Part shown: piece after piece, positions 6,970-61,431 of the stretch
How the letters are laid out: every line of letters starts with the position of its first letter
Position numbering within the stretch: the first letter of the stretch is position 1
Assembly (NCBI GenBank): GCA_964591195.1
Contig: CAZPZY010000001.1
Coordinates: 7,111 to 71,110, forward strand
Length of the DNA stretch: 64,000 bases
Direction: 5' to 3'
Source: an uncultured Candidatus Saccharibacteria bacterium
GTDB lineage: Bacteria; Patescibacteriota; Minisyncoccia; Minisyncoccales; JAGGSE01
Program-made: the position numbers and the translations under genes
The notes under the pieces: generated by a model
The model's database searches: none
Told to the model about the DNA's origin: nothing
The model's input: only the letters and a program-made list of their open reading frames with translations

Positions 6970-6970
6970 A

Positions 6971-17680: not shown

Positions 17681-19290
17681 ATATCTAAAAGTTTAAGAAT
17701 TTTTTCTCTGTCTGCCAGCCACAGAAAGGTTGCCAGGCGTGGGCCCCTATCTTTGCCAAACAAGAGATTGTAAATATCCTTAAAAAACGCTCTCTGAGAC
17801 AGGGTAATTTTTTTTGGATCAAGCCCTGGCTCTTTAGGAATCTCATAGAGTATTTTTTTTAATTCCTCTACTGAGGAAGTGCCTGTCTCAATCCTCTCTC
17901 TTAATCTTCTTATCTGCTCTATTGATTTGAGGCTCATTTTTTTGAGATATTCTTGGTTAGGGTTTTCCAATAAAGAAAACCCTTGTTCAGGATTATATCT
18001 TTGAAGCCAGTTCCTGGCTCTTTTCAAACGAGACCTAACAGATTCCTTATCGTAGGCAATCCCCAATTTTTCCAATAATCTAATTGTCTTTTCTTGGTCC
18101 CATTGGGCAATCTGGCCCAGGGCGACCGCCTGACGAAAAGGAATTGGGTGTTTGTAAAATTTTTCCTTTTCAATGCTTAATTCTAAAGCCTGCCGACGTT
18201 CTAAATTAAGGACATTCTGTTGATACCTTTCAACCTCACTATCAAACTCATCATATTGGCGGTAGATCTCGCTGTCAAAAGCCAAGGTAAAAACACTGCT
18301 AGGCGATCTTCTTAAATACATCCATTTTAACAGGGAGGGCTCGTATATTTCCAAAAGTTGAAGCGGGGATACGGCATTGCCCTTTGAACTGGACATCTTT
18401 CCTTTCAGCCCCCGTAAGCCAATGAATTGGTAGCCGGCAAAAACAGGAGCCCTAATACCAAAAACCTCCCTGGCTATCACCTTAGAGACATCATAGCTCC
18501 CACCGGGAGAGGCATGATCAGCCCCTCCGGGCTCAAAAACCACTCCCTCTGCCATCCAGCGCATTGCCCAATCGGTTTTCCAAGCCAACTTTACTATATG
18601 TTCTTTGGTTATATCAATTTCATCAATCCTATTTGTCTTAAGACACTGATACCTTATTTTTGTCCTGCCATCATAAGCCAAGATTTTAACATTATCCTTG
18701 CCACTAAAGCGCGAATAAATAGAAATTGGATAATAGTTTTTTATGAACTCTTTAGGATCTATTCCCTTTTCTCTTTTTGCCTTCTCTGACATAAAGGAAA
18801 GAAGTATTTGGGCAATTTTTTGACGGGAATTTAATGCCTGAATAATAAACTGGTCATAACGGCCCGATTTGTATTCTTTGGTCTGATAACGATACTCAAG
18901 ATTTATCTCCAACTCAACCATTGCTCTCTCAAACTCTTTCTCAAATCTTTCTGCCCAGGAGTTATATTTTCCATCGGGGTCTGGAACAGAACTCAGGGGC
19001 GCCCCGATATATTTTTTGAAAGAATCATCTACCTCTGGAGGGACCCTCCGAAAGCGGTCAAAGTCATCCCAAGAAAAAATGAAACGGACCTTTTTGCCCT
19101 CTCTTTGAAGTTGTTTAGCCACAGCAAGGGAGGTCATTACATCGCGAAAGTTGCCAAAATGGACCGTTCCAGAGGGGGTAATTCCAGCGGCACAAACATA
19201 AACCTTCCTTGCAGGAAATTTTTTAAGAACCAATTTTGCAATTATTCTACTCCAATGCTGGCTATTGTCTTCCATAATTATTTTTGGCAT
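17677..19290 (-). CDS. lysK: class I lysyl-tRNA synthetase (archaeal-type LysRS); start probably at MPKIIMED rather than the upstream in-frame M
   Basis: PSGTVHFGNFRDV (HIGH-region variant) and KGKMSSSKG (KMSKS) in a class-I LysRS-like arrangement. Confidence 0.75.
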   Translation of the reverse strand: MPKIIMEDNSQHWSRIIAKLVLKKFPARKVYVCAAGITPSGTVHFGNFRDVMTSLAVAKQLQREGKKVRFIFSWDDFDRFRRVPPEVDDSFKKYIGAPLSSVPDPDGKYNSWAERFEKEFERAMVELEINLEYRYQTKEYKSGRYDQFIIQALNSRQKIAQILLSFMSEKAKREKGIDPKEFIKNYYPISIYSRFSGKDNVKILAYDGRTKIRYQCLKTNRIDEIDITKEHIVKLAWKTDWAMRWMAEGVVFEPGGADHASPGGSYDVSKVIAREVFGIRAPVFAGYQFIGLRGLKGKMSSSKGNAVSPLQLLEIYEPSLLKWMYLRRSPSSVFTLAFDSEIYRQYDEFDSEVERYQQNVLNLERRQALELSIEKEKFYKHPIPFRQAVALGQIAQWDQEKTIRLLEKLGIAYDKESVRSRLKRARNWLQRYNPEQGFSLLENPNQEYLKKMSLKSIEQIRRLRERIETGTSSVEELKKILYEIPKEPGLDPKKITLSQRAFFKDIYNLLFGKDRGPRLATFLWLADREKILKLLDI

Positions 19291-20159
19291 TTGGGGCAAA
19301 AATGAGCGGAGCGCCCTCCGATTTTCTGACGCTTGATTATGGCACCACATCTTGGACACCTTTGTCCCTCTTTCCGGTAAACCTTTATTACCCTGTCAAA
19401 CCCTCCCTTAGCGCCCCAGGGCAGGCGATAGTCAGAAACAGAGGCACCTTGAAGTTTTATTCCCAGAGATAAAATTTTCTTCATTGCTGAATAAATCTCC
19501 TTTAGTTCCTTTTCATTTAATTCCCTTATCTTCCTAAAGGGATTAATTCTCGCCTCAAATAAAATCTCATCAGAATAGATATTGCCAATTCCGGCAATTA
19601 CACCTTGGTCCATTAACACCTGTTTAATCGCTTTATTTTTCTTTTTCAAAACACCTTCCTTGAACTTCTCAAAGGTAAAACTTTTGTCTAATGGTTCCGG
19701 ACCCAGAGAACCTAATTCCTTTTTCAGTTCCTCTTCACTTAAGACCTCTAACTTGGCAAATTTTCTTAAATCAGAGAGGGCTAATTGCTTCCCGTTATCT
19801 AAATAAAATATCAGGTGTAAAAACCTGTTCATCGGGTCCTCGGTCAAAGGACCTTTAACAAGAGCCTGCCATTTATTGTCTTGCCGTTTCCATTCTCCCA
19901 AAAGCAGATGACCTGTTAATTTTTGGTGGATTAGGAGATTTTTACCAGAGGACAACCCAAAAATAATATTTTTTCCTCTCCGCCAAATTTTTTTAATTTT
20001 CTTGCCCTTGATCTCCTTTTTGAACTGAAGAAGGTCTTTGGGCTTTTTAATAAGCGAGGGGCTGTCAGTCCAAATGTCTAAAAAAACAGCCCCTAATATC
20101 CGGGGTCTGGTTTTCTTTAATATATTAATAGTAGTTTCCACCTCAGGAAGCTCAGGCAT
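19278..20159 (-). CDS. mutM: formamidopyrimidine-DNA glycosylase (Fpg/MutM)
   Basis: N-terminal MPELPEVE catalytic Pro2/Glu3; C-terminal zinc finger [25 protein letters not shown]. Confidence 0.85.
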   Translation of the reverse strand: [293 protein letters not shown]

Positions 20160-24302: not shown

Positions 24303-25457
24303 TTACTTCAGTTCAAAGACCGAAAGGGAAGAGTCCTCAAATCCAGCCACATAGACATATGGTCCTGAGACATAAACTGACCAAGCGCCACCCAAGTAAT
24401 ATGGAGCGCCCCTCCCTTGAATGGAATCCACCAAGGTTGGTTTTTTCGGGTTGCTGATATCAAAGACTGAGAGAGCGCTGTCCTTAGCAGAGGCAACATA
24501 GGCATATTTCCCGGAAACAAAGACAGAAGAGGCACCTCCCAAAAAGTAGGGACTGCCGGCTCCGTGAACATTGCCCAAAAACAGGGGAGCAGTTGGGTCA
24601 GAGACATCAAAAATAGTCAGGGAATTGTCATACATTGAAGCAACATATGCCTTATTTCCAGAGACAAAAACTGAGGTTGCTCCGTCAAGATAATTTGGAT
24701 AACCGGCTCCTCTGGCAGTACCGACATGTTTTGGATGGGTTGGATCGGAAACATCAGAAACGCTCAAGGCATCATCACCAGCCGTAGCCACATAGGCATG
24801 GTTATGGCTTACAGCAACAGAACTGGCTCCGTCTAGGTAGGGGGATGCCTTGCCGGCAACCGAACCAAGATACTTCGGATTGCTTGGGTCGGAAACATCA
24901 ATCAAGGTCAGGGCCTTATCATCAAAGGCGGCAACATAGGCAATGTTCTTAACCACACAAACCGAGTTTGCTCCGTCAAGATAATTGGGGGAACCAGCAC
25001 CAGAAATGACTCCTAGGTGCTTTGGATTTTCCGGGTCAGAGACATCAAAAATAGTCAGGGCGTCATCTAAATAGGAAGCAACATAGGCACGGTTCCCAGA
25101 GACAAAAACAGAATCTGCTCCACCCAAGTAGTAGGGGGCCCCTGCTCCTTTCAATACCTTTACCAATTTAGGATGAGAAGGGTCGGAGATATCAAAGACT
25201 GAAAGAGCACTGTCCTGCAGAGAAGCAGTAAAGGCATAATTTCCTGCAATATGAACAGAACTTACCCCCTTCAAGAAATTTGGAGAGCCGCCTCCTGAAA
25301 TCTTTCCTACAAACTCAAGATTCCCCTTCTGAACTGGCGGCGGCAGTGGAGGAGTAGGGGATGGTGGCGAGGGCTTTCTCAACCAGATAAAGGAAAAACC
25401 GACAAAGGCAACAACTACAACGATAAATACTAACCAATAAATCTTATTATCCTTCAT
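24303..25457 (-). CDS. secreted LVIVD-repeat beta-propeller protein (seven ~43-aa repeats)
   Basis: Seven repeats of G-A-G-x-P-x-Y-L-x-G-A-x-S-V-x-V-S-G-N-x-A-Y-V-A-...-D-x-A-L-T-I-F-D-V-S-D-P-x-x-P-K; N-terminal TM/signal followed by a Pro-rich linker. Confidence 0.7.
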   Translation of the reverse strand: MKDNKIYWLVFIVVVVAFVGFSFIWLRKPSPPSPTPPLPPPVQKGNLEFVGKISGGGSPNFLKGVSSVHIAGNYAFTASLQDSALSVFDISDPSHPKLVKVLKGAGAPYYLGGADSVFVSGNRAYVASYLDDALTIFDVSDPENPKHLGVISGAGSPNYLDGANSVCVVKNIAYVAAFDDKALTLIDVSDPSNPKYLGSVAGKASPYLDGASSVAVSHNHAYVATAGDDALSVSDVSDPTHPKHVGTARGAGYPNYLDGATSVFVSGNKAYVASMYDNSLTIFDVSDPTAPLFLGNVHGAGSPYFLGGASSVFVSGKYAYVASAKDSALSVFDISNPKKPTLVDSIQGRGAPYYLGGAWSVYVSGPYVYVAGFEDSSLSVFELK

Positions 25458-28520: not shown

Positions 28521-28584
28521 AATTTGATTTTCCTTAAAAAAATGCTAAACTACTAATGTGTCCTATTTAACTATAATAATAATT

Positions 28585-28793
28585 TCCTTGCTGAGGCATC
28601 TTGTTGAGGTGGAGCATATCGCAGCCGAGCCCCAGAATAGGTTTGCGCTTCAGAAAAGGTATGGACGGCTCGGCGAGATATAGAAGCGCCTGGGAATAAA
28701 TTTCTTCTTACCACTTACGGCGACTTCGTGCTCCCCGAGGCAAGATGCCTCAGCGAATTTGCTACCAGAGCGGTTAGCAATTAAACCAAACCT
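28585..28793 (+). ncRNA. candidate structured leader / cis-regulatory RNA upstream of trpS (family unknown)
   Basis: TATAAT at 28573-28578; 14-bp long-range helix 28590-28603 with 28741-28754; internal helices gccgagcc/ggctcggc and gcgcttc/gaagcgc in a pseudoknot-compatible order; two terminal hairpins immediately before the ATG. Confidence 0.3.
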
Positions 28794-29827: not shown

Positions 29828-30012
29828 GATAAAATTCCTTCGGGGTCGGGTGACCTCTCCTTGGCACAAAACTGCGGGAAGAGGAATTCCCAATCGGTGG
29901 TATAGCCCACGACTCTCGCCAAAAGCGGGACTGAACTGGTGAAATTCCAGTGCCGACCGTATAGTCGGGATGAAAGAAGGAATATTAACTGCCCCCGAAG
30001 GGGGCTTTTTAA
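29828..30012 (+). promoter_or_regulatory. FMN riboswitch (RFN element) with intrinsic terminator expression platform
   Basis: TTCGGGGTCGGGTGA...AATTCCCAATCGGTGGTATAGCCCACGA...GGTGAAATTCCAGTGCCGACCGTATAGTCGGGATGAAAGAAGG matches the RFN consensus; followed by GCCCCCGAAGGGGGC + TTTTTAATTTT terminator just before ribE. Confidence 0.85.
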
Positions 30013-36932: not shown

Positions 36933-38136
36933 GTTGAGGGTTTTTTTGAAATTCTTTTTTCACCAACTCCCAAAACCTCTTTTGGTCAAGAACATATTTG
37001 CCCATTTCCTCCCAATCTACCCTTGCCCTTGCTCTAGCCATCTTCTTGTCCCTTAATATGGCTTTTTTATTTCCTCTGGCAATATCAGCAATATGGGCGG
37101 CGAGTTTGGTTACGACAACCCCCTCTCTGACATCCTCGACCTCAGGCAAGCCAATATGTTCTTTTGGGGTTACATAACAAAGGAAATCAGCGCCGAGGGC
37201 GCCAGCAAGGGCGCCACCGATGGCACAGCCAATATGGTCATAGCCAGCACCAATATCAGTAGGTAGAGGTCCTAAAACATAAAATGGGGCTGAATGACAA
37301 TATCTCTTTTCTAATTTAACATTTTCCTCAATCTCACTGAGGGGAATATGTCCTGGTCCTTCTATCATTACCTGAACGCCTGCTCTTCTGGCTCTTTTAG
37401 CCAGTTCTCCCAATGTTTTCAGTTCCTCAATCTGCGCCTTATCTGTAGCGTCTGCCAGACACCCTGGCCTTAGTCCATCTCCCAAACTCAGGGTAACATC
37501 ATATTCGGCGGCTATTTCAAGAATTCTGTCAAAATACTGATAAAGAAAGTTTTCTTTGCCATGATAGGTCATCCATTTTAACAAAAGAGACCCTCCCCGG
37601 CTGACAGATTTTATCACCCTCTTTTTAAGCAGGGGAATGGTCCTTTTTGTTACCCCCGCATGAACAGTGGCAAAATCAACCCCGTCCCGTGCCTGCTTCT
37701 CGAAAGCCTGAAGGTAACGGTCAAGGGTAAGAAATGGCAGTCCTTTTGATTCCACCACTGCCTGATAAATAGGCACGGTCCCAAAGGGACAAGGGCATTT
37801 TTTAATAAGGGTTCTTCTGATTTTGTCAATGTCTCCTCCCGTGCTCAAATCCATTATAGTATCAGTTCCTCCTTCAAGGGCCATCTTTAATTTCTCTACC
37901 TCCTTCTTTCTATCAACCCTTACTGGCGATGTTCCTATATTGACATTAACCTTTACCCTCAATCCCTTGCCTATACCAATGGGCTTTAAGCCCCTATGCC
38001 TTCTATTTGCCGGGATAACCACCAGCCCCCTTTTTATCTTTTCTCTTAAATCCTCCGGGTCAATACCTTCCTCCCTGGCAACCTTTCTCATTTCTTTTGT
38101 AATTTCCCCTTTTTTTGCTTCTTGAAGTTGAGTCAT
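36880..38136 (-). CDS. thiC: phosphomethylpyrimidine synthase ThiC
   Basis: IEGPGHIPL...APFYVLGPLPTDIGAGYDHI...ADFLCYVTPKEHIGLP and C-terminal CSMCGPFCA cluster motif. Confidence 0.9.
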   Translation of the reverse strand: MTQLQEAKKGEITKEMRKVAREEGIDPEDLREKIKRGLVVIPANRRHRGLKPIGIGKGLRVKVNVNIGTSPVRVDRKKEVEKLKMALEGGTDTIMDLSTGGDIDKIRRTLIKKCPCPFGTVPIYQAVVESKGLPFLTLDRYLQAFEKQARDGVDFATVHAGVTKRTIPLLKKRVIKSVSRGGSLLLKWMTYHGKENFLYQYFDRILEIAAEYDVTLSLGDGLRPGCLADATDKAQIEELKTLGELAKRARRAGVQVMIEGPGHIPLSEIEENVKLEKRYCHSAPFYVLGPLPTDIGAGYDHIGCAIGGALAGALGADFLCYVTPKEHIGLPEVEDVREGVVVTKLAAHIADIARGNKKAILRDKKMARARARVDWEEMGKYVLDQKRFWELVKKEFQKNPQLKKRKECSMCGPFCALS

Positions 38137-38211
38137 AATTTCTATGGATTGGCTGGCTTAAGTGCCAAATTAAAATCAATAATTTAAAATCCCAAATCTC
38201 AAAGCTTAGAT

Positions 38212-38403
38212 AAATCCGAATCTCGAATATCGAAATCCGAAACAAATTCGAATGTTCAAATGCTCAAAATTAAATGCAAAATGCAAATCTCAAAAATCAA
38301 AATGAAAGATTAAAATGCAAAAAGAATTCTCTTTGATTTTTTCTTTTTCATTTTGCATTTTGATTTTTGATTTTTGATTTGGTTTGGATTTGAATTTCGA
38401 ACC
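38212..38403. repeat. large AT-rich imperfect palindromic intergenic repeat, copy A (family of 4 in this window)
   Basis: Arms built from AAATCCGAA and AAATGCAAAATGCAAA / CAAAAATCAAAA units around a GAATTC centre; >95% identical to copy D at 61165..61330. Confidence 0.7.
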
Positions 38404-38439
38404 TGGCTTTAGGACTTGCCTAAAGGGTTAACAGATACG

Positions 38440-38592
38440 CCCCTATTATACCTCTTTTTGCAGTAATTTAACAGGGATTGTTGTGATTGCTCATTTTACC
38501 CACATATTCCCCATAATATCCACAAGATATCAACATTTATCCTATTTTTATCGCAACTTGCCTCTCCTTGACATTTATGTATAATGAATGTG
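38440..38592. promoter_or_regulatory. oriC-like DnaA-box cluster upstream of dnaA, plus the dnaA promoter
   Basis: TTACCCACA 38496-38504, ATATCCACA 38516-38524, TTATCCtat 38538-38546; TTGCCT-16 nt-TATAAT (38580-38585). Confidence 0.5.
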
Positions 38593-39948
38593 ATGTCCAA
38601 CGAAGAGCTCTGGGAAGCAGTTTTGGCCCAAATCCAATTAAACATCTCCCCAGCCAACTTTGCTACCTGGTTTAAGGGCACGAAAATCATCTCCCGGGAA
38701 AAAACCCAGGTAATGGTTTCTGTTCCCAGTTCTTTTGTTAAGGAGTGGTTAGAACAGAAATACAACGATATTATTTTAAAAATTCTCCATGGTTTAGATA
38801 GCAGCATAAAGGAGGTTAAATATTGTATTGAAAAACAGAGCCTAAAGATCAAGGCACCGAGAAAGAAAATATCCTACCAAGAAGAAGCCGGACAATTGGG
38901 CTTTGAAGGACTTGAAATAGATAAAGAAACAAACCTCAATCCAAGGTATACCTTTGAGAACTTTGTTGTCGGTTCTTTTAATGAATTAGCCCATGCCGCT
39001 GCTCAAGCAGTAATACAAAAGCCAGGACTGGTCTACAACCCCCTCTTTATTTATGGGGGAGTGGGTTTGGGTAAAACCCATCTCTTGGAAGCCATTGGTA
39101 ATGAGGTCTGTAAAAACTTTCCGGAGAAGAAAATAAAATACATCCCCTCCCAAAAATTTATAGAAGACGTAGTTAGGGCTATCAGGAAGCATAAGATGGA
39201 GTTGTTTAAGTCAAGTTATAGGGAGATTGATCTCTTAATAGTTGATGATGTCCAGTTTCTGGCTGGTAAAGAAAAAACACAAGAGGAATTTTTTCATATA
39301 TTCAATCTTCTTTACGAAAAAAATAAACAGGTTGTTATCTCCTCAGACTGTCCACCTCGAGCAATCCCCTCTCTTACAGAAAGATTAAGGTCTCGCTTTA
39401 CAGGAGGGATGATTGCCGATATTTCTCAGCCCGACCTTGAAACACGGATAGCAATACTAAAGACAAAGGCAAGAGAGGCAGGGGTTGATTTTCCTAATGA
39501 AATATATAACCTTATCGCCGAGTCAGTCCAAAAAAATATCAGGGAATTAGAAGGTGCTTTAAATCGGGTTATTGTCTATCAAAAAATAAATAACAAACCG
39601 CCAGACATTAATATCGTCAAATCCCTTCTAGGGAAAATAATAAAAGGAGGAAGAAAAAAAATTACCCACAAAAAAATAATCTCTACAGTGGCTGAGTTTT
39701 ATGGATTGACTGAAAAAGATATTATTATCCCCTCCCGTAAAAAAGAAATTGTAAAACCAAGACAGATTGCTATGTATCTGTTAAGAAGGGAATTAAACAG
39801 TTCTTTCTCTTTTATAGGAGAAAGATTTGGAGGAAAAGACCACACAACTGTCATTCATAGTTGTGAAAAGATTAACAGTCAACTACAAAAAGATAAAAAC
39901 CTAGAGGAAGAAATTCAAATGATCGCCCAGAGGATATATAATTCATAA
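38593..39948 (+). CDS. dnaA: chromosomal replication initiator DnaA (start probably the second ATG, MSNEELWEAV)
   Basis: GGVGLGKTHLLEAIGNEV AAA+ Walker A; C-terminal DNA-binding domain IAMYLLRRELN...SFIGERFGGKDHTTVIHSCEKI. Confidence 0.9.
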   Translation: MSNEELWEAVLAQIQLNISPANFATWFKGTKIISREKTQVMVSVPSSFVKEWLEQKYNDIILKILHGLDSSIKEVKYCIEKQSLKIKAPRKKISYQEEAGQLGFEGLEIDKETNLNPRYTFENFVVGSFNELAHAAAQAVIQKPGLVYNPLFIYGGVGLGKTHLLEAIGNEVCKNFPEKKIKYIPSQKFIEDVVRAIRKHKMELFKSSYREIDLLIVDDVQFLAGKEKTQEEFFHIFNLLYEKNKQVVISSDCPPRAIPSLTERLRSRFTGGMIADISQPDLETRIAILKTKAREAGVDFPNEIYNLIAESVQKNIRELEGALNRVIVYQKINNKPPDINIVKSLLGKIIKGGRKKITHKKIISTVAEFYGLTEKDIIIPSRKKEIVKPRQIAMYLLRRELNSSFSFIGERFGGKDHTTVIHSCEKINSQLQKDKNLEEEIQMIAQRIYNS

Positions 39949-41531: not shown

Positions 41532-42074
41532 ATGAGCATAAAAAAGAACTATGTTACTGTTGTTAATAAAAAGGGAGAAGAAATTGGTAAGGCAGAAAAG
41601 TTAAGGGCTCATCAAGAAGGAAGGTTACATCGAGCGTTTTCCGTTTTTATTTTTAATAAAAAGGGGGAATTGCTTTTACAAAAAAGGGCTCAGGGGAAAT
41701 ATCATTCAGCCGGGCTTTGGTCAAATACCTGCTGTTCTCATCCCCGGCCCGGGCTTGATATAAAAAAAGAGGCGGAAAAGCGGCTTAAGGAGGAGATGGG
41801 AATTAGAGCGGAGTTAAAAGAGGTCTTTAATTTTATTTACAGAGCAAGGGTGGGTAGGTTAATTGAATATGAATTTGACCACGTTTTCTTCGGAAGATTT
41901 GACGGACAACCCAAAATAGACAAAAAAGAGGCGGAAGATTGGAGATGGATTTCTTTAGATAAATTAGAAGAAGATATAAGAAAAAATCCCAAAAGATATA
42001 CCTTTTGGCTTAAAAAGATAATTAAGAAAAATGGCTATCAATTTAAAGCCCTACTTAAAACTTGCCAGGATTAA
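41532..42074 (+). CDS. idi: isopentenyl-diphosphate delta-isomerase, type 1 (Nudix)
   Basis: HRAFSVFIFNKKGELLLQKRA...WSNTCCSHP matches the IDI-1 active-site region. Confidence 0.8.
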   Translation: MSIKKNYVTVVNKKGEEIGKAEKLRAHQEGRLHRAFSVFIFNKKGELLLQKRAQGKYHSAGLWSNTCCSHPRPGLDIKKEAEKRLKEEMGIRAELKEVFNFIYRARVGRLIEYEFDHVFFGRFDGQPKIDKKEAEDWRWISLDKLEEDIRKNPKRYTFWLKKIIKKNGYQFKALLKTCQD

Positions 42075-42876
42075 TAACTGGCGCGGCTATTTTTTAGGAG
42101 GGGTTTTCGGCTTTTTACTTGCTGAGGGGTGGCGTGCTCCTGTTTTTGATATCATTTGTTTGTTTGTTATTGGAATTTTATTGTTTACCTTTGGATTTTC
42201 AATAAATGATTTTTTTGATATTAAGGGAGATAAGTTTAAAAAAGACAAAAAAATCATTATTGGCAAGATAATCGGCGTGGGAAGGGCATTTTTCTTCTCT
42301 CTTTTCTCGGGGGTTCTAGGACTGGTTCTTTCTTTCCGTTTTGGTCTAAGGGCGTTTCTTGATGCCTTTTTGGCTGTTTTTCTTACCTTTCTTTATTCTG
42401 CTCCGCCGGTAAGATTAAAATCAAGACCCTTTTTAGACATAATCTCCCATGGTTTTTTTGCCGGTATTTTAATTTTTCTTTTTCCTCTCTTTGCCTTTGC
42501 CCCCAAAATAGACAGCCCGGAGAAACTTTTGTTGATTCCCATTTTTGTTCTCTCTATTACTGCTGAGACCAGAAATCACCTTAATGACTACCAGGCGGAT
42601 AGAGCCGAGGGACTGAAAACAACGGTTTGTTTTTTGGGTTATGAAAACTCCCAAAAACTCTTGAGGTTTTTCTTCTTCTTTTATCCTCTTACCCTTTTTC
42701 CTGTTTTTTGGCTTGTAGCCAGGAAGTTTTATTCTCTTTTTCTCTTCATTACCCTTTTCTTTCTTTTATTACTTCTGGCTAGGAAAAACCATCAGGCAGT
42801 TAGGGACTGGTTTTTGATGGACATTTACACCTTTTTTTCCTTTCTTTTCATTTTGATTTTTCATTATGGATCCTAA
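42031..42876 (+). CDS. UbiA-superfamily integral membrane prenyltransferase
   Basis: Asp-rich motifs NDFFDIKGD and NDYQADRAEG in a ~8-TM protein. Confidence 0.75.
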   Translation: MAINLKPYLKLARINNWRGYFLGGVFGFLLAEGWRAPVFDIICLFVIGILLFTFGFSINDFFDIKGDKFKKDKKIIIGKIIGVGRAFFFSLFSGVLGLVLSFRFGLRAFLDAFLAVFLTFLYSAPPVRLKSRPFLDIISHGFFAGILIFLFPLFAFAPKIDSPEKLLLIPIFVLSITAETRNHLNDYQADRAEGLKTTVCFLGYENSQKLLRFFFFFYPLTLFPVFWLVARKFYSLFLFITLFFLLLLLARKNHQAVRDWFLMDIYTFFSFLFILIFHYGS

Positions 42877-43846
42877 AAAGGTTGAACATTGTTTAGACAG
42901 GGCAATTGATTTTCTCTACCGCTCTCAATTGCCATGGGGAGAGTTTAAGACCCTTGCGAGTTGGAATTTTTTAATGATGCCTGCCTATTATGACAGCAGT
43001 CCCTTTGGCACTGGCCTGATACTTCATAATCTAAAAGGACTTAATGACGAAAGGGCAAGGAAGATGGTTGACAAGGCAATTGCCTTTTTGTTGTCTGAAA
43101 AAGAAAAGGGAGGGATTTGGAGGTTTTGGACCTCAAGAAACAAGAAAAGGATTCCTCCAGACCTAGACGATATTTCAGTGATTTCTTCTGGGCTTAAATT
43201 ATACGGCGTGCAATTTGAAGATAATAAAGATCTTGTTCTCAGCAACAGGAACAAAAATGGCTTATTTTTAACATGGATTCTTGACGAAAGACACAAGAAA
43301 AATCTATTTTGGAAAACAGCAGCAAAAGATGCTGATTGTGTTGTCAATGTCAATGTGTTAACATATCTGGAAAGGCCATTGCCTGAGGTTTGCACCTATA
43401 TTAATAAACTAATAAGCGAAAATCGCTCCAGTTCCTATTATTATCCCAGTAAACTGGCTTTTTTTTACTTTGTTTCCCGAGCAGCAAGGTCAGGGGTAAC
43501 ATGTTTCAAGAAAAACAGAGAATGGATTATCAATTCGGTCTTGTCTTGTCAGAAAAAGGATGGTTCTTTTGGAAACGAGATGGAAACTGCCCTTGGCCTT
43601 AATACCCTCTTTAACCTTAACTGTTTTGGAAAGGAAACAGAAGATGGTATAAGTTATTTATTAAGTCGGCAGAGGAGAAAGGGCGGATTCAAAAAGCAGG
43701 TTTACTTTTTGGGGATCCCCTGGTGGTTTTTGGCTCTAAGCCCCTTCTATGGTTATTATGGGTCTGAGGAAATAACCACCGGGGTTTGTATTGAGGCATT
43801 TAGGAACTATCTATCACAGAGACAATTTTATGGAGGAGGTGTTTGA
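42866..43846 (+). CDS. alpha/alpha-toroid protein with terpene-cyclase / prenyltransferase-like Q-x-x-x-G-(F/W) repeats
   Basis: Repeated motifs EKEKGGIW, QKKDGSFGN, RQRRKGGFKKQ spaced as in squalene-cyclase/prenyltransferase beta-subunit repeats; no TM. Confidence 0.4.
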   Translation: MDPKKVEHCLDRAIDFLYRSQLPWGEFKTLASWNFLMMPAYYDSSPFGTGLILHNLKGLNDERARKMVDKAIAFLLSEKEKGGIWRFWTSRNKKRIPPDLDDISVISSGLKLYGVQFEDNKDLVLSNRNKNGLFLTWILDERHKKNLFWKTAAKDADCVVNVNVLTYLERPLPEVCTYINKLISENRSSSYYYPSKLAFFYFVSRAARSGVTCFKKNREWIINSVLSCQKKDGSFGNEMETALGLNTLFNLNCFGKETEDGISYLLSRQRRKGGFKKQVYFLGIPWWFLALSPFYGYYGSEEITTGVCIEAFRNYLSQRQFYGGGV

Positions 43847-44969
43847 TACAATCATTGTTGGAGCCGGACCTGGCGGGCTGTCTGCTGGAAGATATCTAAA
43901 AGACGCCCTTATTCTGGACCAAAAGAAAGAAATTGGGTTGCCTGTTCAGTGTGCCGAGGGGCTATCAAAGAGATTTTTGGACGAAATGGACATTTCTCCT
44001 GAACCAGAATGGATATCTGTCACTATTGATACAACCCAGATTGTTTTGCCTAATGGGAAGGAGATTAATCTATATTTTCCGGGGCAAAGTTATGTGATAG
44101 ACCGGAAGGGATTTGAAAAATTTCTTGCCAGGATGTCTCAGGCGGAAATCCGCTTGGGTCAGAGGGTGGTTGATATAGAAAAGAGAGGGGGCCTTTGGGA
44201 GGTAAAAACAAGACAAGGCAAGATATTCAGGTCAAGATATCTTATCGGAGCAGATGGTCCCTTTTCAATAGTCAGGGAGAAGGTTTTTGGCCAAAAAATT
44301 AGGGTCCTACCTGTTGTTGAATACCTGGTAGAATTGACCAATAACCTTGATACCTCAAAACTTTTAATTTATCTTGACAAAGATTGGTTGGGCACCGGCT
44401 ATGCCTGGATATTTCCAAAATCAAAGAACAGGGCGAATATTGGCTTGGGTAGTGTGGAGAAGAAAGACAACCTAAACAAACTTTTAAGGGATTTTTTAGA
44501 AAACAAGGTAAAGAAGAATTTTGGACCCTATCACCTGTTGGAAAACAGAAGCAGTGTTGGGCCCTGGCTTGAGGGGCCGATAAAAATAGCCAAAGACAAT
44601 GCTTTTCTTGTTGGAGATGCAGCCGGGCTTGTTGACACCATTTCCGGGGGAGGCATAGGCAATGCAATGCTTTCTGGTCACTTGGCAGCCAAGGCAATTC
44701 TTAAGTCAGACCCTCCTTCTTACCAGAAGCAGGTTCAGTCGTTCTTTTCCGAAGACCTGTTTCAGGCACAAAAAATCCTTTATTCTTTTGACAATCAAAC
44801 CCTAAATGAACTTGGTCAGGTTTTGGAGAAAAAAAATGGGGATATTTTTTATCTGAAAAATCCGCAGGCACTTCTTGCTTTTCTCTCCAAGCCCCATTTA
44901 AGGAAAAATATTTTTGGGTTTCTTAAACTCTTTTTGATATACGCAAAATGGAAAGTCAAAAACACCTAA
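43830..44969 (+). CDS. FAD-dependent geranylgeranyl reductase family protein
   Basis: TIIVGAGPGGLSAG dinucleotide fold; GDAAGLVDTISGGGIGNAMLSGHLAA signature of GGR (ChlP / archaeal lipid saturase). Confidence 0.8.
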   Translation: MEEVFDTIIVGAGPGGLSAGRYLKDALILDQKKEIGLPVQCAEGLSKRFLDEMDISPEPEWISVTIDTTQIVLPNGKEINLYFPGQSYVIDRKGFEKFLARMSQAEIRLGQRVVDIEKRGGLWEVKTRQGKIFRSRYLIGADGPFSIVREKVFGQKIRVLPVVEYLVELTNNLDTSKLLIYLDKDWLGTGYAWIFPKSKNRANIGLGSVEKKDNLNKLLRDFLENKVKKNFGPYHLLENRSSVGPWLEGPIKIAKDNAFLVGDAAGLVDTISGGGIGNAMLSGHLAAKAILKSDPPSYQKQVQSFFSEDLFQAQKILYSFDNQTLNELGQVLEKKNGDIFYLKNPQALLAFLSKPHLRKNIFGFLKLFLIYAKWKVKNT

Positions 44970-46021
44970 AACGTTTTAGGCCCGAGATTGATAGGATTAT
45001 AAAAAGGTATCTTCCTAAAAGAGCCAGTAAGAGGTGGCTGGCTTTTGCCTTTGGGAGGTCAGGTGTTAGCCAGACAAACCTTAGGGTCGCTCAGGAGTGC
45101 TTTTTGGATCCCCTCTGGAATTTTTTAGAAAGAGGAGGAAAAAGGTGGAGACCGTTTTTTTTCTTATTACTGACCAAAGCCCTTGGAGGCAAGGTGGAAA
45201 AGGTCAAGGAGATCGCTGTTATTCTTGAATTGACCCATCAGGGCTCGCTGATCGTGGATGACCTTGAAGACAACAGCAGATTTAGGAGATCTGCGCCCTG
45301 CCTTCATCGTTTGTATGGTGTAGACGTTGCCATTAATGCCGGCAATTTCCTTTATTTCTTGCCATTTCTAACTTTGGAGAAAAATAAGAACAGGTTTCCC
45401 TGCTCAGTTCTAACCAGGGCGTATCAGGCCTGTATTCAGGAGATGGCCAATGTCCACTTGGGACAAGGAATGGATATCTATTGGCATAGGGGCAAAGGGA
45501 GGAAAATAGAAGAGAAAGAGTATCTGCGGATGGCTTCCTTCAAAACCGGCAGTTTGGCAAGACTGACAGCCCGACTGGCTTGCATTTTTTCTGGAGTTAG
45601 CGAACCAACATCTAAAAAACTGGAGAAGGCAGCGGAGAAGATTGGGGTTGCCTTCCAGATTCAGGATGACATTTTAGATATCACCCTTGGAGAGAAAGAA
45701 AGAAAGAGATTTGGGAAGGAATTTGGCAATGATATCAAGGAGGGGAAAAGGACCCTTATTGTTTTGCGGACATTAAAAAAGGCAAAGCCAAAAGAAAGAA
45801 AACAACTACTTGCCATTTTGGATAAACACCCCAACACGAAAAAAGAGATAAAAAGGGCAATAGAGATTATAAGAAAATATGATGGCGTTGAGCAGGCAAG
45901 AAAGACAGCCCAGCGCCTTTTAGACCAAGGATGGAGGATAATGGATAAAGCCCTTGTTCCTTCAAAAGCCAAGGAAGGCCTCAGGCAACTTGTTTATTAT
46001 CTGGGCAAAAGGGAAATATGA
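44948..46021 (+). CDS. polyprenyl (GGPP/FPP-type) diphosphate synthase
   Basis: First and second Asp-rich motifs LIVDDLEDNS and FQIQDDILD. Confidence 0.85.
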   Translation: MESQKHLKRFRPEIDRIIKRYLPKRASKRWLAFAFGRSGVSQTNLRVAQECFLDPLWNFLERGGKRWRPFFFLLLTKALGGKVEKVKEIAVILELTHQGSLIVDDLEDNSRFRRSAPCLHRLYGVDVAINAGNFLYFLPFLTLEKNKNRFPCSVLTRAYQACIQEMANVHLGQGMDIYWHRGKGRKIEEKEYLRMASFKTGSLARLTARLACIFSGVSEPTSKKLEKAAEKIGVAFQIQDDILDITLGEKERKRFGKEFGNDIKEGKRTLIVLRTLKKAKPKERKQLLAILDKHPNTKKEIKRAIEIIRKYDGVEQARKTAQRLLDQGWRIMDKALVPSKAKEGLRQLVYYLGKREI

Positions 46022-47172
46022 AAACAGACGATTCTCATTTTTACAAACTACCCTTAAAAAAGAAGATAGAATTTATTAAAAGGTTTTCCGGACTGAATAA
46101 AGAGGATCTTGAGATTCTCAAAAGATATCAAGAACTGCCTGATTTCTTTGATATAGAAAGCAATATTGGTCCATTCAAGATTGCTACTAATTTTTTTGTT
46201 GAGGGCAAGGAATATCTGGTACCCATGGAAACAGAGGAGCCCTCAGTGGTGGCAGCTGCCTCAAGAGGGGCAAAACTTGTCAAGGAGGGTGGCGGTTTTA
46301 GGGGCAGGTATTTAGGCAATCAAATGATTGGTCAGATTCAGCTTTTGGGGGCCAAGGACTTTAGAAAGAACAAGAAGAGAATTTTAGAGAATAAGAAAAA
46401 AATCCTTGATACTGCCAATCAGACCAATAGGTTTCTTTTAAGGATAGGAGGAGGGGCAAGAGACATAGTAGTTAAAAAACGGGGGAGGTTTTTGGTTTTA
46501 TATCTGTTTGTTGATACAAAAGATGCCATGGGAGCAAATATTGTTAATACGATGGTAGAGAAAATTTCTCCCCTCTTAACTAAATACACTCATGCCAGGG
46601 TTGGCTTGAGAATTATTTCTAATTTTGCTCCAAAAAGGATTGTTTCTGTTTGGGCAAGGGTGTCCATTGACTCATTAGAACTTAATGGTTTTTCTGGGGA
46701 AGAGGTTGCTGAGGGAATTCTTTCTGCCCAAAAATTAGCTGAACTAGACATATACCGGGCAGTTACCCACAATAAGGGAGTAATGAACGGCATAGATGCA
46801 GTTGCCTTAGCCACAGGCAATGATACCCGAGCAATTGAAGCGGCGGTTCATAGTTTTGCTGCCAGAAAAGGGAAATATCAACCCATAACCTGTTGGAAAA
46901 GAGAAAAGGAATACCTTAGAGGGGAGATTAGAACTCCTCTGCCTATTGCTACAGTAGGTGGAGCAACCTCAACCAAAAAGGCGAAACTAGCCCTAAAAAT
47001 TTTAGGAGTCAAAAATGCCCAGGAACTGGGTATTGTCGCCGGGGCAGTTGGCCTGGCAAACAATCTGGCTGCCCTTTCAGTTTTGGCAACAGAGGGAATT
47101 CAAAGGGGCCATATGAAAATCCATAAAGAGTTTGTCAAGAAGACAAGCCGACCCCGGAGTGGTCAATCTTGA
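46018..47172 (+). CDS. mvaA: hydroxymethylglutaryl-CoA reductase (catalytic domain only)
   Basis: DAMGANIVNTMVE motif and ~385-aa size of archaeal/class-I-like catalytic domain. Confidence 0.8.
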   Translation: MKTDDSHFYKLPLKKKIEFIKRFSGLNKEDLEILKRYQELPDFFDIESNIGPFKIATNFFVEGKEYLVPMETEEPSVVAAASRGAKLVKEGGGFRGRYLGNQMIGQIQLLGAKDFRKNKKRILENKKKILDTANQTNRFLLRIGGGARDIVVKKRGRFLVLYLFVDTKDAMGANIVNTMVEKISPLLTKYTHARVGLRIISNFAPKRIVSVWARVSIDSLELNGFSGEEVAEGILSAQKLAELDIYRAVTHNKGVMNGIDAVALATGNDTRAIEAAVHSFAARKGKYQPITCWKREKEYLRGEIRTPLPIATVGGATSTKKAKLALKILGVKNAQELGIVAGAVGLANNLAALSVLATEGIQRGHMKIHKEFVKKTSRPRSGQS

Positions 47173-48229
47173 TTTTTAGAGGGATAATTCCATTTTTTCT
47201 CCACTCCTTCTTAATTTTATCAGCCCTTTTTTGAGAAGAAACAAGGCAGATGCCACAGTCGCCTCCGCCTGCCCCGGCTATCTTGCCCGCTCCTCCAAAC
47301 CTTTCCGCAATTTCTGAGAGGATTTTTAGTTTTTCTGTTACGATCTCTGTTCCCGATTTCTTACTCAGTTCTTTTAGATATTTTTCATTTTCTTTGATTA
47401 GGTTTAGAATCTGTTTTTTGTTTTTTTCTCTTAAGGACAAAATCATTTTTTTTGTTGTTCTGCTGATGTCTGAAATGATTTTTTTATAAGCTTTTGGCGC
47501 TTTTTTTTGCCAGCTTTTTATTTTTTTTATTAGTTCTGGAGTAGAAGAAGGTCTGCCTGTCCAGCCAACCAAGAGTTTAAGTTCCTTTGGCAGATTTAGT
47601 TTTTCAACATAGAAATTGGGCCAGGGCATTTCAACAATTTTTCTCATATCTCTTTCTTTTTTAACTTGCTTTTTTAGCCAGTTGACATTAATCCCATGGC
47701 AGGCAAGATATCCTCCGTAGACCGAGGCAACAATATCTGCTCCGGAGCCGAGTTTTCCTTGGGCAAAAAAATGAGAAAGAGAGGCCAGTTTGAAGATTTT
47801 CTCTTTTTCTAATTTTTCTTTGTTGAACTTAAGCAAGGCAGCAATAATAGCCACGCTTGAAGCCGCTGAAAAGCCAAAGCCAATCTTTTCTTTGTTCTTA
47901 GCCCAAAGTTCTATCCTGAAGGGTTTCCATTTTCCTAAATACCTCAAACCAACCTCAATTGCTTTTCGGGCGAAGATAAGCAGTTTTTCTTCCTCTGGTT
48001 TTAGTTTCTTCAAAAAGTGCAGGTGGCCCTTTTTAAACTCTGCCTTTAGGTTTTTTAGATTATAGTTCTTTAGGGAAAGATGGATTTTTTTGTCTTGAGA
48101 ATTGGTAATTTTTGCGAAAATTCTTTTTTTAACAGCCACAACAATCGCTGGATTTTCAGGTTCCAATACCGCCCATTCGCCGGAAATAAATAACTTTCCT
48201 GGAACTGAGATGATAAATGACCTAGGCAT
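47135..48229 (-). CDS. mvaK2: phosphomevalonate kinase (GHMP family)
   Basis: N-terminal PGKLFISGEWAVLE (cf. GKLYWAGEYAILE of bacterial PMK); GFGFSAASSVAIIAAL GHMP motif. Confidence 0.7.
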   Translation of the reverse strand: MPRSFIISVPGKLFISGEWAVLEPENPAIVVAVKKRIFAKITNSQDKKIHLSLKNYNLKNLKAEFKKGHLHFLKKLKPEEEKLLIFARKAIEVGLRYLGKWKPFRIELWAKNKEKIGFGFSAASSVAIIAALLKFNKEKLEKEKIFKLASLSHFFAQGKLGSGADIVASVYGGYLACHGINVNWLKKQVKKERDMRKIVEMPWPNFYVEKLNLPKELKLLVGWTGRPSSTPELIKKIKSWQKKAPKAYKKIISDISRTTKKMILSLREKNKKQILNLIKENEKYLKELSKKSGTEIVTEKLKILSEIAERFGGAGKIAGAGGGDCGICLVSSQKRADKIKKEWRKNGIIPLKIKIDHSGVGLSS

Positions 48230-49235
48230 AATTTTTCACCCCTTTTGCTCCTAATCCTACATTAAAAAAATCAAGGTTTAGTTTTTTTAACAATTTGGTT
48301 AATTGTTTCTTGTCTTGATGAAAGCAAATAATTGCCCCTCCCCCTCCTGCTCCTGAAAGTTTGGCTGCGCCTCCTATATTCCTTACCGCCCTTACAATTT
48401 TCTCTATTTTTGGGGTAGAAACCCCCAGAACCCTGAGGGATTCCTGGGCAGTGTTGATTGAATCCTTGATTATTTCTGGGCTTCCTTTTTTAAGCCCCTC
48501 CCGCATTTTATATGTTGCCAGGGCAATATCCTTGATTTTTTCTTCCCTTAGTTTGCTGGACAGATTTCTGACCCTTTGGATAAGTTTGGCTGTTGTCATT
48601 CCCTTTTTTCGAGGGAGCAAAACAAGGACAATCTCTTTTAGAAATGGGGGGAGGTTAATATGGGTCCATTTCCCTTTTTCAAACCAGACGGTCCCGCCAA
48701 AGGTAGAGATAAAATTGTCCCCACCACTTGGCTTTCCGTGGTTGATTTTTTCTATCTCAAAAGCCATTTGATTGATTTCTTTTTTTGAAAGGTGAAATGA
48801 GAGAAACTCAGAAACTGCCTTGGAAAGAGAGACCGAAAGAGAAGCAGATGAGCCCAGTCCCATTCCAACAGGGAAATCGCTTTCTATCTCCAAAGAAAAG
48901 GGCTTTTTTATTTTCGCTTTTTCTAATATCAATCCTATCCCTGCCTTGCTGAGGTTTAAGGGATTTGATTTCAAAAATCTGAAGAGTTTTGAGAAATCGC
49001 CTTTTTTGTTTCCTTCTTGCCACAACTTCTGGCACCTTTTTGCTGTTTCTAATACCTGATTGATTTCAAATTCTCCTTCTTCTCCCAAGGGCTTATTTTC
49101 AATTTTTATTCTTTTTGCTCTCTTAATTTTTACCCTTGTTCTCTTTTCAATAGCCGAGACAATGGCTGGATAGCCATAGCAGACAGCGTGCTCTCCAATT
49201 AGATGTATTTTCCCCGGTGCCGAAGATTCGGCCAT
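48222..49235 (-). CDS. mvk: mevalonate kinase
   Basis: APGKIHLIGEHAVCYG N-terminus; PVGMGLGSSASLSVSL GHMP ATP motif. Confidence 0.85.
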   Translation of the reverse strand: MAESSAPGKIHLIGEHAVCYGYPAIVSAIEKRTRVKIKRAKRIKIENKPLGEEGEFEINQVLETAKRCQKLWQEGNKKGDFSKLFRFLKSNPLNLSKAGIGLILEKAKIKKPFSLEIESDFPVGMGLGSSASLSVSLSKAVSEFLSFHLSKKEINQMAFEIEKINHGKPSGGDNFISTFGGTVWFEKGKWTHINLPPFLKEIVLVLLPRKKGMTTAKLIQRVRNLSSKLREEKIKDIALATYKMREGLKKGSPEIIKDSINTAQESLRVLGVSTPKIEKIVRAVRNIGGAAKLSGAGGGGAIICFHQDKKQLTKLLKKLNLDFFNVGLGAKGVKNYA

Positions 49236-49512
49236 AGAATTGTAGAGTCTATTTCACAAAATGCAAAAACCTTGTTTTGTTTATCTAGCCCCTTTCTGAA
49301 GAGAGGCTTTCAATATCTTTTCTACGAATAAATCTTTCTTTGGTCTTTTTGACGACAATCAAATCTAAATTGCTACCAAGAGCCAATATTATAAAATCTC
49401 AGTTTAATTTTATCAAAAATTAGAACAAAAACAAATAGAGCCTGCCCCTTCCCTTCCCAAATCCTCAAATTTTTGATAGCGTTGCTTAACCTGGTTAAAC
49501 AATGGACAAAAG

Positions 49513-49711
49513 CCCAAAGCTAAAACGCAAGCACAACTTAAAGCGCAAATCTTATCAAATTCGAAACCCAAGATTCAAAACAATGACCAAAGTTCAAAAC
49601 CAAACCAAATCAAAAATCAAAATACAAAATGATAAATCAAAATTCAAAATGAATAAAATAATTTTGCATTTTAGATTATCATTTTGATTTTTGAGATTTG
49701 CATTTTGCATT
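49513..49711. repeat. AT-rich imperfect palindromic intergenic repeat, copy B
   Basis: Right arm AATTTTGCATTTTAGATTATCATTTTGATTTTTGAGATTTGCATTTTGCATT is near-identical to the reverse complement of the left arm of copy C; left side carries an AAAGCGCAAA unit as in copy C. Confidence 0.6.
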
Positions 49712-49861
49712 AAAAATTGTACAAGATTGAAAATCTGAGATTTTTATGATATTATTCTTGATTGTCAGAATCAATGACAAGGCAATTTGCTAAAAGTTTG
49801 CCTTTTGTTTCTGCCTTTTGCTATTTAGGAGGCTGCCATATAGATTGGTTTTTTTTAAGAT

Positions 49862-54553: not shown

Positions 54554-54565
54554 CCTAATTTGTAG

Positions 54566-54612
54566 TTGCTAACCGCTTTGGTAGCAAGTTTGCTGAGGGA
54601 AGATACCTCAGC
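54566..54612 (+). promoter_or_regulatory. two-hairpin module (TTGCTAACC-N5-GGTAGCAA palindrome + GCTGAGG-N7-CCTCAGC hairpin), inverted copy of the 3' end of the trpS leader
   Basis: Reverse complement of 54576-54612 matches 28745-28780 with 4 mismatches; lies 33 nt upstream of the carboxyltransferase ATG. Confidence 0.3.
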
Positions 54613-56195: not shown

Positions 56196-56234
56196 AGGTG
56201 TTTTTTTGGAGCATAATATGTTATAAAATTGATA

Positions 56235-56476
56235 AAATGCAAAATGCAAATCTCAAAATGACAATTCAAAATGCAAAATTATTTTTAAACCCAAAGCGTA
56301 AAGCGCAAAGTGTAAAGCTAAAGCGTAAAGCTTAAAGCTATAAAAGAAAGGTTTCGCTTTTCGCTTTAAGTTGTAGTTTTGCGCTTTGCGCTTTGAGCTT
56401 TGCGCTTGAATGTTGATTTTGAATTTTGAGATTTAAGATTATCATTTTGATTTTTGATTTTTGCATTTTGAATTTT
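56235..56476. repeat. AT-rich imperfect palindromic intergenic repeat, copy C, with nested GC-richer inner palindrome
   Basis: Outer arms AAAATGCAAAATGCAAATCTCAAAATGA... / ...TCATTTTGATTTTTGATTTTTGCATTTTG; inner arms (AAAGCGTAAAGCGCAAAG)n / (CTTTGCGCTTTGCGCTTT)n. Confidence 0.6.
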
Positions 56477-56481
56477 AAATT

Positions 56482-56616
56482 ATGTCCATCACCTACCAAC
56501 CAAAAAAGAGAAAAAGGAAAAGAACCCACGGATTTCTGAAGAGAATGAAAAGCAAGGACGGAAGAAAAGTGTTGGCAAGAAGGAGGAAGAAAAAAAGATG
56601 GAGAATATCGGTCTGA
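56482..56616 (+). CDS. rpmH: 50S ribosomal protein L34 (missed by the ORF track: 44 aa)
   Basis: Translation [44 protein letters not shown] matches the L34 consensus (…QP..KRKR.HGFR.RM.T..GR.VL..RR.KGR..L.V). Confidence 0.85.
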
Positions 56617-56621
56617 GTGAT

Positions 56622-56966
56622 ATGTTGCCGAGAGAAAATCGTTTGAGGAAGAACAAAGACATAAAAAATGTCTTGACAAGGGGCAAGCCAGTAAGAGAGA
56701 ATTTTTTATTTTTGAAGATTGTCAAGAATGATTTAGAATCTCCGCGCTTTGCCATTGTTGTAGGAAAGAACCTTTCCAAAAAGGCGGTGATTAGGAATAA
56801 ATTGAAGCGCCGAATTTCAGAAATAATAAGAATAAAGTTAAAAATGAATGAAATAAAACCAGTAGATGGAGTTGTTATTGCCCTGCCCGGAGCAGAAAGA
56901 ATGGACTTTAGTGGACTCAAGCAGGCAATTGAGAAAATTTTTGCCAAAGCAAAACTAATAAAATGA
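56622..56966 (+). CDS. rnpA: ribonuclease P protein component (start probably MLPRENRL)
   Basis: RLRKNKDIKNVLTRG...FAIVVGKNLSKKAVIRNKLKRRISE matches the RnpA RNR motif region; directly downstream of rpmH. Confidence 0.75.
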   Translation: MLPRENRLRKNKDIKNVLTRGKPVRENFLFLKIVKNDLESPRFAIVVGKNLSKKAVIRNKLKRRISEIIRIKLKMNEIKPVDGVVIALPGAERMDFSGLKQAIEKIFAKAKLIK

Positions 56967-61370: not shown

Positions 61371-61431
61371 CTCCACTGAGTTTTGAATTAGGATGGTTTG
61401 CCAAATTCAAATTATACCCATTCTCGCTTGC

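Follow-up and report, generated by a model that had tools for sequence, protein, structure and literature searches.

Heptamer-built imperfect palindromes form a mosaic, probably recombining family at intergenic sites of an uncultured Patescibacteria-type bacterium

The stretch analysed (the window; 64,000 nt, positions 7,111 to 71,110 of contig CAZPZY010000001.1, assembly GCA_964591195.1, uncultured Candidatus Saccharibacteria bacterium; a metagenome-assembled contig, present also in ENA ERZ1742239) carries four large AT-rich imperfect palindromes, copies A to D, in intergenic DNA. Pfam searches of the flanking genes placed A between thiC and dnaA, B between a GHMP kinase (mvk-like) gene and an NMO (FabK-like) gene, C between a carboxyltransferase gene and rpmH-rnpA, and D beside the genes of PrgI and a VirB4-like ATPase; these are the neighbours named in a first-pass annotation made from the letters alone, whose coordinates and composition for the four copies also agree with ours, with the additions that D holds a 102-nt insertion and that B is lopsided. 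Open reading frames (ORFs) regarded there as spurious do overlap the repeats (e.g., 56338–56679, minus strand; 61328–61609, plus strand). The palindromes and their parts are:

38212–38403, no strand: copy A, heptamer-lattice palindrome with A-rich arm, GAATTC centre and T-rich arm; right outer arm truncated
49513–49711, no strand: copy B, lopsided palindrome, left arm ~140 nt, right arm ~50 nt
56235–56476, plus strand: copy C, nested palindrome with outer arms of AAAATGC-type units; end 8 nt before the rpmH ATG (56484)
56286–56407, no strand: inner AAAGCGY module of copy C
61035–61370, no strand: copy D, full-length palindrome with CGAAATC-type outer arms
61062–61163: foreign insertion in the left arm of D, 102 nt, inverted ends ATCCCGCAGC / GGTGCGGGAT
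38240–38397, no strand: core common to A and D, found also in the genome AUK014 and in 5 or more further contexts

Tandem Repeats Finder returned period-7 arrays in 4/4 copies (matches 68–95%). The left arms are composed of AAAATGC, AAAAATC, AAATCTC and CGAAATC units, with AAAGCGY in addition in the centre of C; the right arms consist of the complements, and the A-rich arm stands 5' and the T-rich arm 3' in all four copies. The arms are heterogeneous, several unit types being mixed rather than one unit repeated homogeneously; the elements are 190–340 nt long and a common head sequence is absent. A 24-nt arm motif, AAATGCAAAATGCAAANNTCAAAA, searched with up to 3 mismatches, gave 10 matches, all of them within copies A–D (0.00 expected from shuffles).

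Folding of the copies as RNA gave the following z against dinucleotide shuffles: A –4.3, B –3.75, C –9.45, D –6.4. Because A-rich sequence pairs trivially with T-rich sequence, two stricter controls were run, one with each half shuffled on its own and one with the 7-nt blocks rearranged inside each half; the native z was between –2.9 and –8.2 for A–D and five palindromes of relatives, and the mirrored order of the units is therefore real. The potential for the long imperfect hairpins proposed at the first pass is thus upheld, and the symmetry exceeds the controls, contrary to the reservation made there that it might be no greater than expected of AT-rich sequence. The plus (sense) strand of C folds 18 kcal/mol better than the minus strand; the sense strand was the better one in 6/9 palindromes of this lineage, which is suggestive only.

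Copies A and D are 98% identical over 141 nt ungapped and align over ~158 nt with gaps, the central GAATTC included; the aligned sequences differ at two single bases, at a dinucleotide and by an indel of exactly 7 nt (TTTTGAT). The right arm of B is 88% like the right arm of C and 85% complementary to the left arm of C (~50 nt); the left arm of B is 82% complementary to the right arm of D over 100 nt. A search of metagenome contigs of the Joint Genome Institute (JGI) with the 25-nt centre of A/D gave 9 loci in at least 5 further genomic contexts (L133/135, L134/137, L136/140, L138/141 and L139; L numbers denote loci gathered for comparison), and the core is also present in the metagenome-assembled genome (MAG) AUK014, where the 102-nt insertion of D was found at the equal position. 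The near-identity of A and D, the complementary arms of B and C and the recent copying of a true repeat family, all three claimed in the first-pass annotation, are hereby upheld. In an alignment of 8 copies, a common core with differing boundaries was obtained, the termini not being constant; no transposase or RAYT domain was detected among the ~30 window ORFs scanned (Pfam). The copies have the appearance of a mosaic, recombining family at fixed sites rather than of a fixed-end transposon.

For comparison, contigs of relatives (~88–91% DNA identity) were retrieved from the surroundings of dnaA, virB4 and recA. At sites C and D a heptamer palindrome stands between conserved flanks in every relative, and its content differs: site D was found with four unrelated interiors (window, L127, L129, L131); the AAAGCGC module, central in C of the window, is found in site D of L131/L132 and in site A of L144; the centre of site C of L131 is inverted; and the centre of site C of L127 is the reverse complement of part of site D of L129. 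Palindrome modules are thus common to, and recombined between, sites A, C and D and genomes, a mosaic feature of the kind known from bacterial interspersed mosaic elements (BIMEs). Change proceeds mainly via interior replacement between conserved junctions together with 7-nt slippage, not via movement of a fixed unit.

Small GC-rich hairpin elements (~25–100 nt) were observed nested in heptamer arms at recurring positions (window 61062–61163; L013/L017; L085; L139; L144 5090–5125 and 5305–5325), and several recur between loci, e.g., cccgaacaaattgctccgcaattatacgggg in L085 and L144; they resemble a distinct class of very small mobile hairpins that target the arrays. Contigs of related MAGs end inside palindromes (L013, L017, L085, L133, L145); the palindromes accordingly fragment short-read assemblies of the lineage and are probably under-counted in MAGs. 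A second dispersed element (~205 nt, more G+C-rich, closed by inverted ends GCTGAGGCATCTTG / CAAGATGCCTCAGC, no Rfam match) was located at 28579–28783 of the window, upstream of trpS, and at two other sites in relatives (L121 6669–6874; L131 15312–15513); at one of the relatives' sites the window retains a 47-nt remnant of it in the opposite orientation (54563–54609).

Site A differs from sites C and D in that an empty state was found. The spacer between thiC and dnaA is 447 nt in the window and ~145–150 nt in four more distant relatives, and the window alignment shows one clean extra segment:

38145–38445, no strand: site-A extra segment, ~300 nt, absent from L119, L121, L123 and L124

The dinucleotide TA stands at both junctions of the segment when compared with L121, L123 and L124; the comparison with L119 is ambiguous, and the match is only 2 nt long. 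Its unique non-heptamer flanks had no second occurrence among the loci gathered for comparison. The segment separates a thiC TATAAT (complement of 38445–38450) from the thiC ATG (38134–38136); in the relatives TATAAT stands 7 nt upstream of the ATG, which resembles a leaderless arrangement. In a closer relative, L144 (RecA 98% identical), the site-A junctions are identical and the outer ~35 and ~85 nt are kept, with a wholly different interior (~560 nt, C-like, with the AAAGCGC module). The adjoining region 38440–38600 probably comprises oriC and the dnaA promoter: the cumulative GC skew reaches its minimum near 38 kb, and conserved TATCCACA-like and TTTACCCACA boxes stand there next to site A. 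The presence of TATAAT ~7 nt before the ATG of dnaA, and of thiC in relatives, suggests leaderless mRNAs in this lineage.

Copy B lies at one end of a rearrangement. Compared with three relatives, the segment 9.96–49.7 kb of the window (9960–49720), which includes dnaA and the probable origin, has the inverted orientation; the junctions are:

9940–10007, plus strand: junction J1, between the diverging gene X and Mur ligase gene; a fifth array, a single arm of A-rich heptamers without partner arm
49255–49723: junction J2, between the diverging mvk and NMO genes; ~470 nt without counterpart in relatives, copy B included

Both junctions are within divergent promoter regions, and heptamer arrays are absent from both uninverted counterpart sites in the relatives. 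The 266-nt novel junction sequence of B had no occurrence elsewhere among the loci gathered for comparison. Two assemblies made independently from different samples contain J2; in the second of them (ERZ27227322, L143) B differs by one exact 7-nt unit, with flanks ~99% identical. Misassembly as the source of the inversion was considered and rejected, since J1 and B have no long identical stretch and J2 is present in both assemblies.

With respect to genes, C and D stand directly before start codons, D being placed between a promoter-like site and the prgI ATG (61023) and ending ~12 nt before it. Two promoter-like sequences were noted:

61411–61439, minus strand: promoter-like TTGAAT-17-TATAAT on the prgI strand, upstream of D; kept in relatives
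56219–56227, plus strand: extended –10-like motif TGTTATAAA, just upstream of C, kept in relatives; read by eye

In A, C and D a promoter-like site precedes the palindrome and a start codon follows it, so that transcription as long AU-rich hairpins of the 5' untranslated region (5'-UTR) is probable. The genes following C and D are essential or operon genes, so these copies cannot be efficient terminators; a terminator scan gave a single match, a small sub-hairpin in the outer arm of A. A and B lie between divergent genes, and the placement of an intrinsic terminator (G+C-rich stem, T run, downstream position) was not found. At the Rfam gathering score the sole match in the window was an FMN riboswitch elsewhere (RF00050, 97 bits, 29832–29985, plus strand, upstream of riboflavin synthesis genes); below threshold only generic miRNA-precursor hairpins were returned. 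The placement of three of the four copies and the tendency of the sense strand to fold better point to the RNA level rather than the DNA level for any role that the palindromes may have. Avoidance of internal promoters was considered as a source of the fixed polarity, since a –35 box is resembled by the T-rich arm and a –10 box by the A-rich arm; it was rejected, a swap of the arms changing the number of promoter-like matches only from 19 to 27.

The units are not confined to this lineage. Comparison of the 21-base motif AATGCAAAATGCAAANNTCAAAA with 185,579 species genomes gave at least 117 loci in at least 12 phyla, and the first-pass description of the family as genome-specific is not borne out. 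By record titles, the loci among the matches listed were distributed as follows:

Acidobacteriota: 25
Patescibacteria: 23
Bacteroidota: 19
Planctomycetota: 14
Clostridia: 12
Proteobacteria-like: 8
unclassified bacteria: 6
Methanophagales (archaea): 2
WOR-3, Desantisbacteria, Stahlbacteria, Nitrospirae, Verrucomicrobiota, Chloroflexota, Phormidium, Subteraquimicrobium: 1 each

Many of the matches are in contigs of 60–69% G+C and are therefore native there and strongly off-composition. Of 119 matches listed, 70 pair with a distal complementary arm, with the A-rich arm first in 59 and the reverse order in 11; away from the seed matches, period-7 arrays were counted 109 times in the listed loci (period-6, 16; period-8, 16), the commonest units being AAAATTC and AAAATGC. 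Automated measurement of start and stop distances was too noisy in GC-rich DNA, and 26 loci were read by eye instead: in the GC-rich ones the hairpin usually fills the stop-to-start spacer and ends 0–17 nt before the start, and the stem is often closed at its base by TAA or TTA. Different species retain orthologous hairpins whose loops have diverged (e.g., L101/L116, L002/L100). The sense strand folded better in 9/12 GC-rich co-directional cases (Wilcoxon p = 0.027), some of the cases being orthologues. A crude gene caller assigned to the listed loci 27 co-directional, 3 convergent and 3 divergent gene pairs; this equals random intergenic placement, and a terminator reading of the cross-phylum hairpins via gene context was dropped. 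No match of the motif was found in 2.9 million viral contigs (0), Rfam gave no match for 18 cross-phylum loci, and a literature search for the motif itself gave no relevant paper. In L003 and L005 (Pirellulales / Planctomycetota), hairpins of other units (GTGGCTG, CCCGAAT, CACGAAGG) adjoin AAAATGC hairpins, from which it follows that tandem-unit hairpins are not limited to A-rich vocabularies.

Among known systems, heptamer repeats and BIMEs come closest. Heptanucleotides are over-represented among long simple sequence repeats (SSRs) (Mrazek et al. 2007, as cited in PMC4679880 and PMC4692102); their function is unsettled in the literature (PMC4679880, PMC4692102, bioRxiv 10.1101/2022.06.06.494920), polymerase slippage and cold-shock or S1 proteins having been proposed for them (PMC4679880), and in Nostoc PCC 7120 TTTTGAA/TTCAAAA repeats occur near start codons (bioRxiv 10.1101/2022.06.06.494920). 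The comparison covered the STRR of heterocystous cyanobacteria, TTTTGAA/TTCAAAA of Nostoc, TAACTGA of Beggiatoaceae and GGGAATC of Xanthomonas. The palindromes share with these the 7-nt units, the many intergenic loci, often beside start codons, the variation of length and sequence between close relatives, the contigs ending inside and the polymorphism of unit number (exact 7-nt indels between A and D and between B of the window and of L143); AAAATTC, the commonest unit in the listed cross-phylum loci, is equivalent to TTCAAAA of Nostoc. They differ in that heterogeneous units take the place of one unit (as in CCCCAGT or TAACTGA arrays), in the long mirrored palindromes (190–340 nt) of fixed A-to-T polarity with a dispersed conserved core, in the exchange of interiors between fixed sites and in a vocabulary that spans many phyla; the host, unlike that of the cyanobacterial repeats, appears to be of the type of the candidate phyla radiation (CPR)/Patescibacteria (RecA 80% to a Nealsonbacteria entry; PrgI/VirB4/TrbL cluster).

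With BIMEs, repetitive extragenic palindromes (REPs) and REPINs the copies have in common that they are intergenic, palindromic, dispersed, mosaic and modular and can mediate rearrangements; BIMEs and REPs are transcribed within operons as hairpins affecting mRNA stability, and transcription of the present copies is probable by their position. REPs are, however, 20–40 nt long, with a conserved GTAG head and linkage to RAYT, neither of which was seen in the copies and the window ORFs scanned, and are without a 7-nt lattice; the present elements are 5–10 times longer and have no sequence resemblance to the REP (Y/Z) units of E. coli BIMEs. The Correia elements of Neisseria and the ERIC/IRU elements are, like the present copies, imperfect palindromes in promoter-proximal intergenic DNA, there of 100–150 nt and with defined terminal inverted repeats; Correia elements duplicate TA and are transcribed as hairpins cut by RNase III, and ERIC elements carry internal insertions at fixed positions. 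The copies described here are without constant ends, and those elements are not known to have their interiors replaced between fixed junctions. The small dispersed repeats (SDR) of Nostoc, reportedly described by Elhai et al. in 2008 as very small hairpin elements inserted in repeated intergenic sequence, resemble by description the GC-rich hairpins nested in the arms and not the palindromes themselves. Strict membership in REP/RAYT elements or in miniature inverted-repeat transposable elements (MITEs), to which the first pass had likened the family, fails on defining features, the copies having neither common termini nor a common head; BIME-like mosaicism and the features of heptamer SSRs are present.

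The reading that we prefer, at a probability of roughly 55%, is that of mosaic palindromes driven by slippage and recombination at promoter-proximal sites, with AU-rich 5'-UTR hairpins as their probable transcripts. The composite imperfect palindromes would make up a lineage-wide family occupying a limited set of AT-rich promoter-proximal intergenic sites; the arrays would slip by one 7-nt unit at a time, one arm would be corrected against the other, by which palindromy is kept, and sequence would be copied non-reciprocally between sites by ectopic gene conversion or replication template switching. Such copying would be anchored in the shared outer units, the interior being overwritten, nested or flipped, with rearrangements such as the ~40-kb inversion and broken assemblies as side effects. 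The hairpins, ending 8–12 nt before the ATG, may affect stability of the mRNA 5' end, RNase III processing or attenuation rather than cause plain termination. Several observations weigh against this account. The site-A segment, with its clean junctions, its unique flanks outside the heptamers and a TA that may be duplicated, resembles the product of a single insertion event, for which gene conversion alone does not account. C of the window and of L129 are 95% identical without a 7-nt indel, and orthologous copies in close relatives (95–97% identical) are fairly stable; turnover is therefore episodic, not constant, and constant hyper-slippage was rejected. The promoter-like sites are consensus matches only, no more frequent than in shuffled sequence, and the sense-strand advantage comes from small samples that are partly non-independent. 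The strong polarity bias (59 vs 11 among the matches listed) and the recurrence of the units in GC-rich genomes hint at a selected function, which the mostly mechanistic account leaves open.

Such selection is the substance of an explanation that we hold to be rather unlikely, though a live rival: a conserved functional cis-element at the RNA level, a regulatory or structural heptad-lattice hairpin, with turnover secondary to selection. The hairpin might be an iterated terminator/attenuator, each GCAUUUU unit giving a G-C clamp and then four U, or a landing pad for a melting protein of ~7-nt footprint, e.g., of the cold-shock domain type or ribosomal protein S1. Apart from the polarity, the spread of the 21-base motif over phyla and into genomes of 60–69% G+C, its absence from the viral contigs, the orthologous hairpins kept while their loops diverge, the GC-rich hairpins filling the stop-to-start spacer with TAA/TTA at the stem base and the better folding of the sense strand all agree with it, as do the binding of CspB at one heptamer per protein that is discussed in PMC4679880 and the effect of TTTTGAA repeats near Nostoc start codons on expression (bioRxiv 10.1101/2022.06.06.494920). 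Site A is nevertheless absent in four relatives with the genes unchanged, and the interiors at C and D are interchangeable, so that no specific sequence is needed; the essential or operon genes behind C and D speak against efficient termination, and the gene context across phyla (27/3/3) is that of random intergenic placement. Cyanobacteria, rich in heptamer repeats, are not known to have CspA-type proteins. A wider form of the same thought is doubtful, taken as one joint claim: the (AAAATKC)n/(GMATTTT)n hairpins of fixed A-to-U polarity would be an undescribed intergenic class, spanning CPR to GC-rich Acidobacteriota and Planctomycetota and kept by a near-universal machine that reads RNA in 7-nt steps, possibly cold-shock-domain or S1 proteins or RNA polymerase at a repeated "clamp plus U4", and the palindromes of the window would be its overgrown, recombining version. 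Just as doubtful is a non-autonomous MITE mobilised in trans by a transposase, which the possible TA duplication would make one of IS630/Tc1 type, the mosaic having arisen via nested insertions and decay. Site A as a clean ~300-nt insertion with TA at both junctions, the core in many contexts, the foreign hairpins with inverted ends nested at recurring positions in the arms and the form of the whole element as one long inverted repeat would suit it; yet the termini are not common to the copies, the outer flanks of site A are unique among the loci gathered, the 2-nt TA match is weak and ambiguous against L119, junctions that stay fixed while interiors change are not predicted by transposition, and the scanned ORFs contained no transposase.

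A structure at the DNA level, cruciform or easily melted and tied to the replication origin or to nucleoid proteins, is highly improbable. All copies in the window are within ~25 kb of dnaA, with four large ones in 38–61 kb and none in 10–38 kb, the GC-skew minimum and the TATCCACA-like boxes adjoin site A, and the inversion spans dnaA; relatives, however, lack copies at the sites on the origin side and throughout ~20 kb around dnaA, related contigs carry copies beside unrelated genes and a tRNA, the asymmetry between sense and antisense folding favours RNA, and a period of 7 bp does not match the helical repeat of DNA. A chance AT-rich low-complexity spacer without true symmetry is ruled out: the sequence is repetitive and AT-rich and its A-rich and T-rich parts pair trivially, but the z under arm- and block-preserving shuffles, the 10 arm-motif matches against none expected, the 98% identity of A and D and the preservation of their core in other genomes all contradict it.

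Some further features of the window are recorded here. A complete mevalonate pathway is encoded (thiolase, HMG-CoA synthase and reductase, two GHMP kinases, decarboxylase), together with a UbiA prenyltransferase, a geranylgeranyl-reductase-like protein, a polyprenyl synthase, class I LysRS, and RtcB with archease; the mevalonate, prenyl, LysRS and RtcB genes are at 5839–9223, 42031–49235, 17677–19359 and 11308–13151, and this archaeal-looking set adjoins acetyl-CoA carboxylase, FabK and acyltransferase genes. The gene at 24303–25457 contains five ~147-nt direct repeats (24446–25295), which encode LVIVD beta-propeller repeats and are unrelated to the palindromes.

In this lineage the palindromes mark where a compact and otherwise syntenic genome changes most: they rewrite the 5' regions of core genes (thiC, rpmH-rnpA-yidC and the prgI/virB4 cluster), stand at both ends of an inversion of the origin region and break metagenome assemblies. 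Heptamer repeats have been known since 1990 and their over-representation was shown in 2007, with no accepted function or origin. With hairpins of fixed polarity in at least 12 phyla, exchanged interiors and a folding bias towards the sense strand, the heptamer curiosity becomes a set of testable questions, on the strand that counts, on the importance of polarity and on the protein with the 7-nt footprint.

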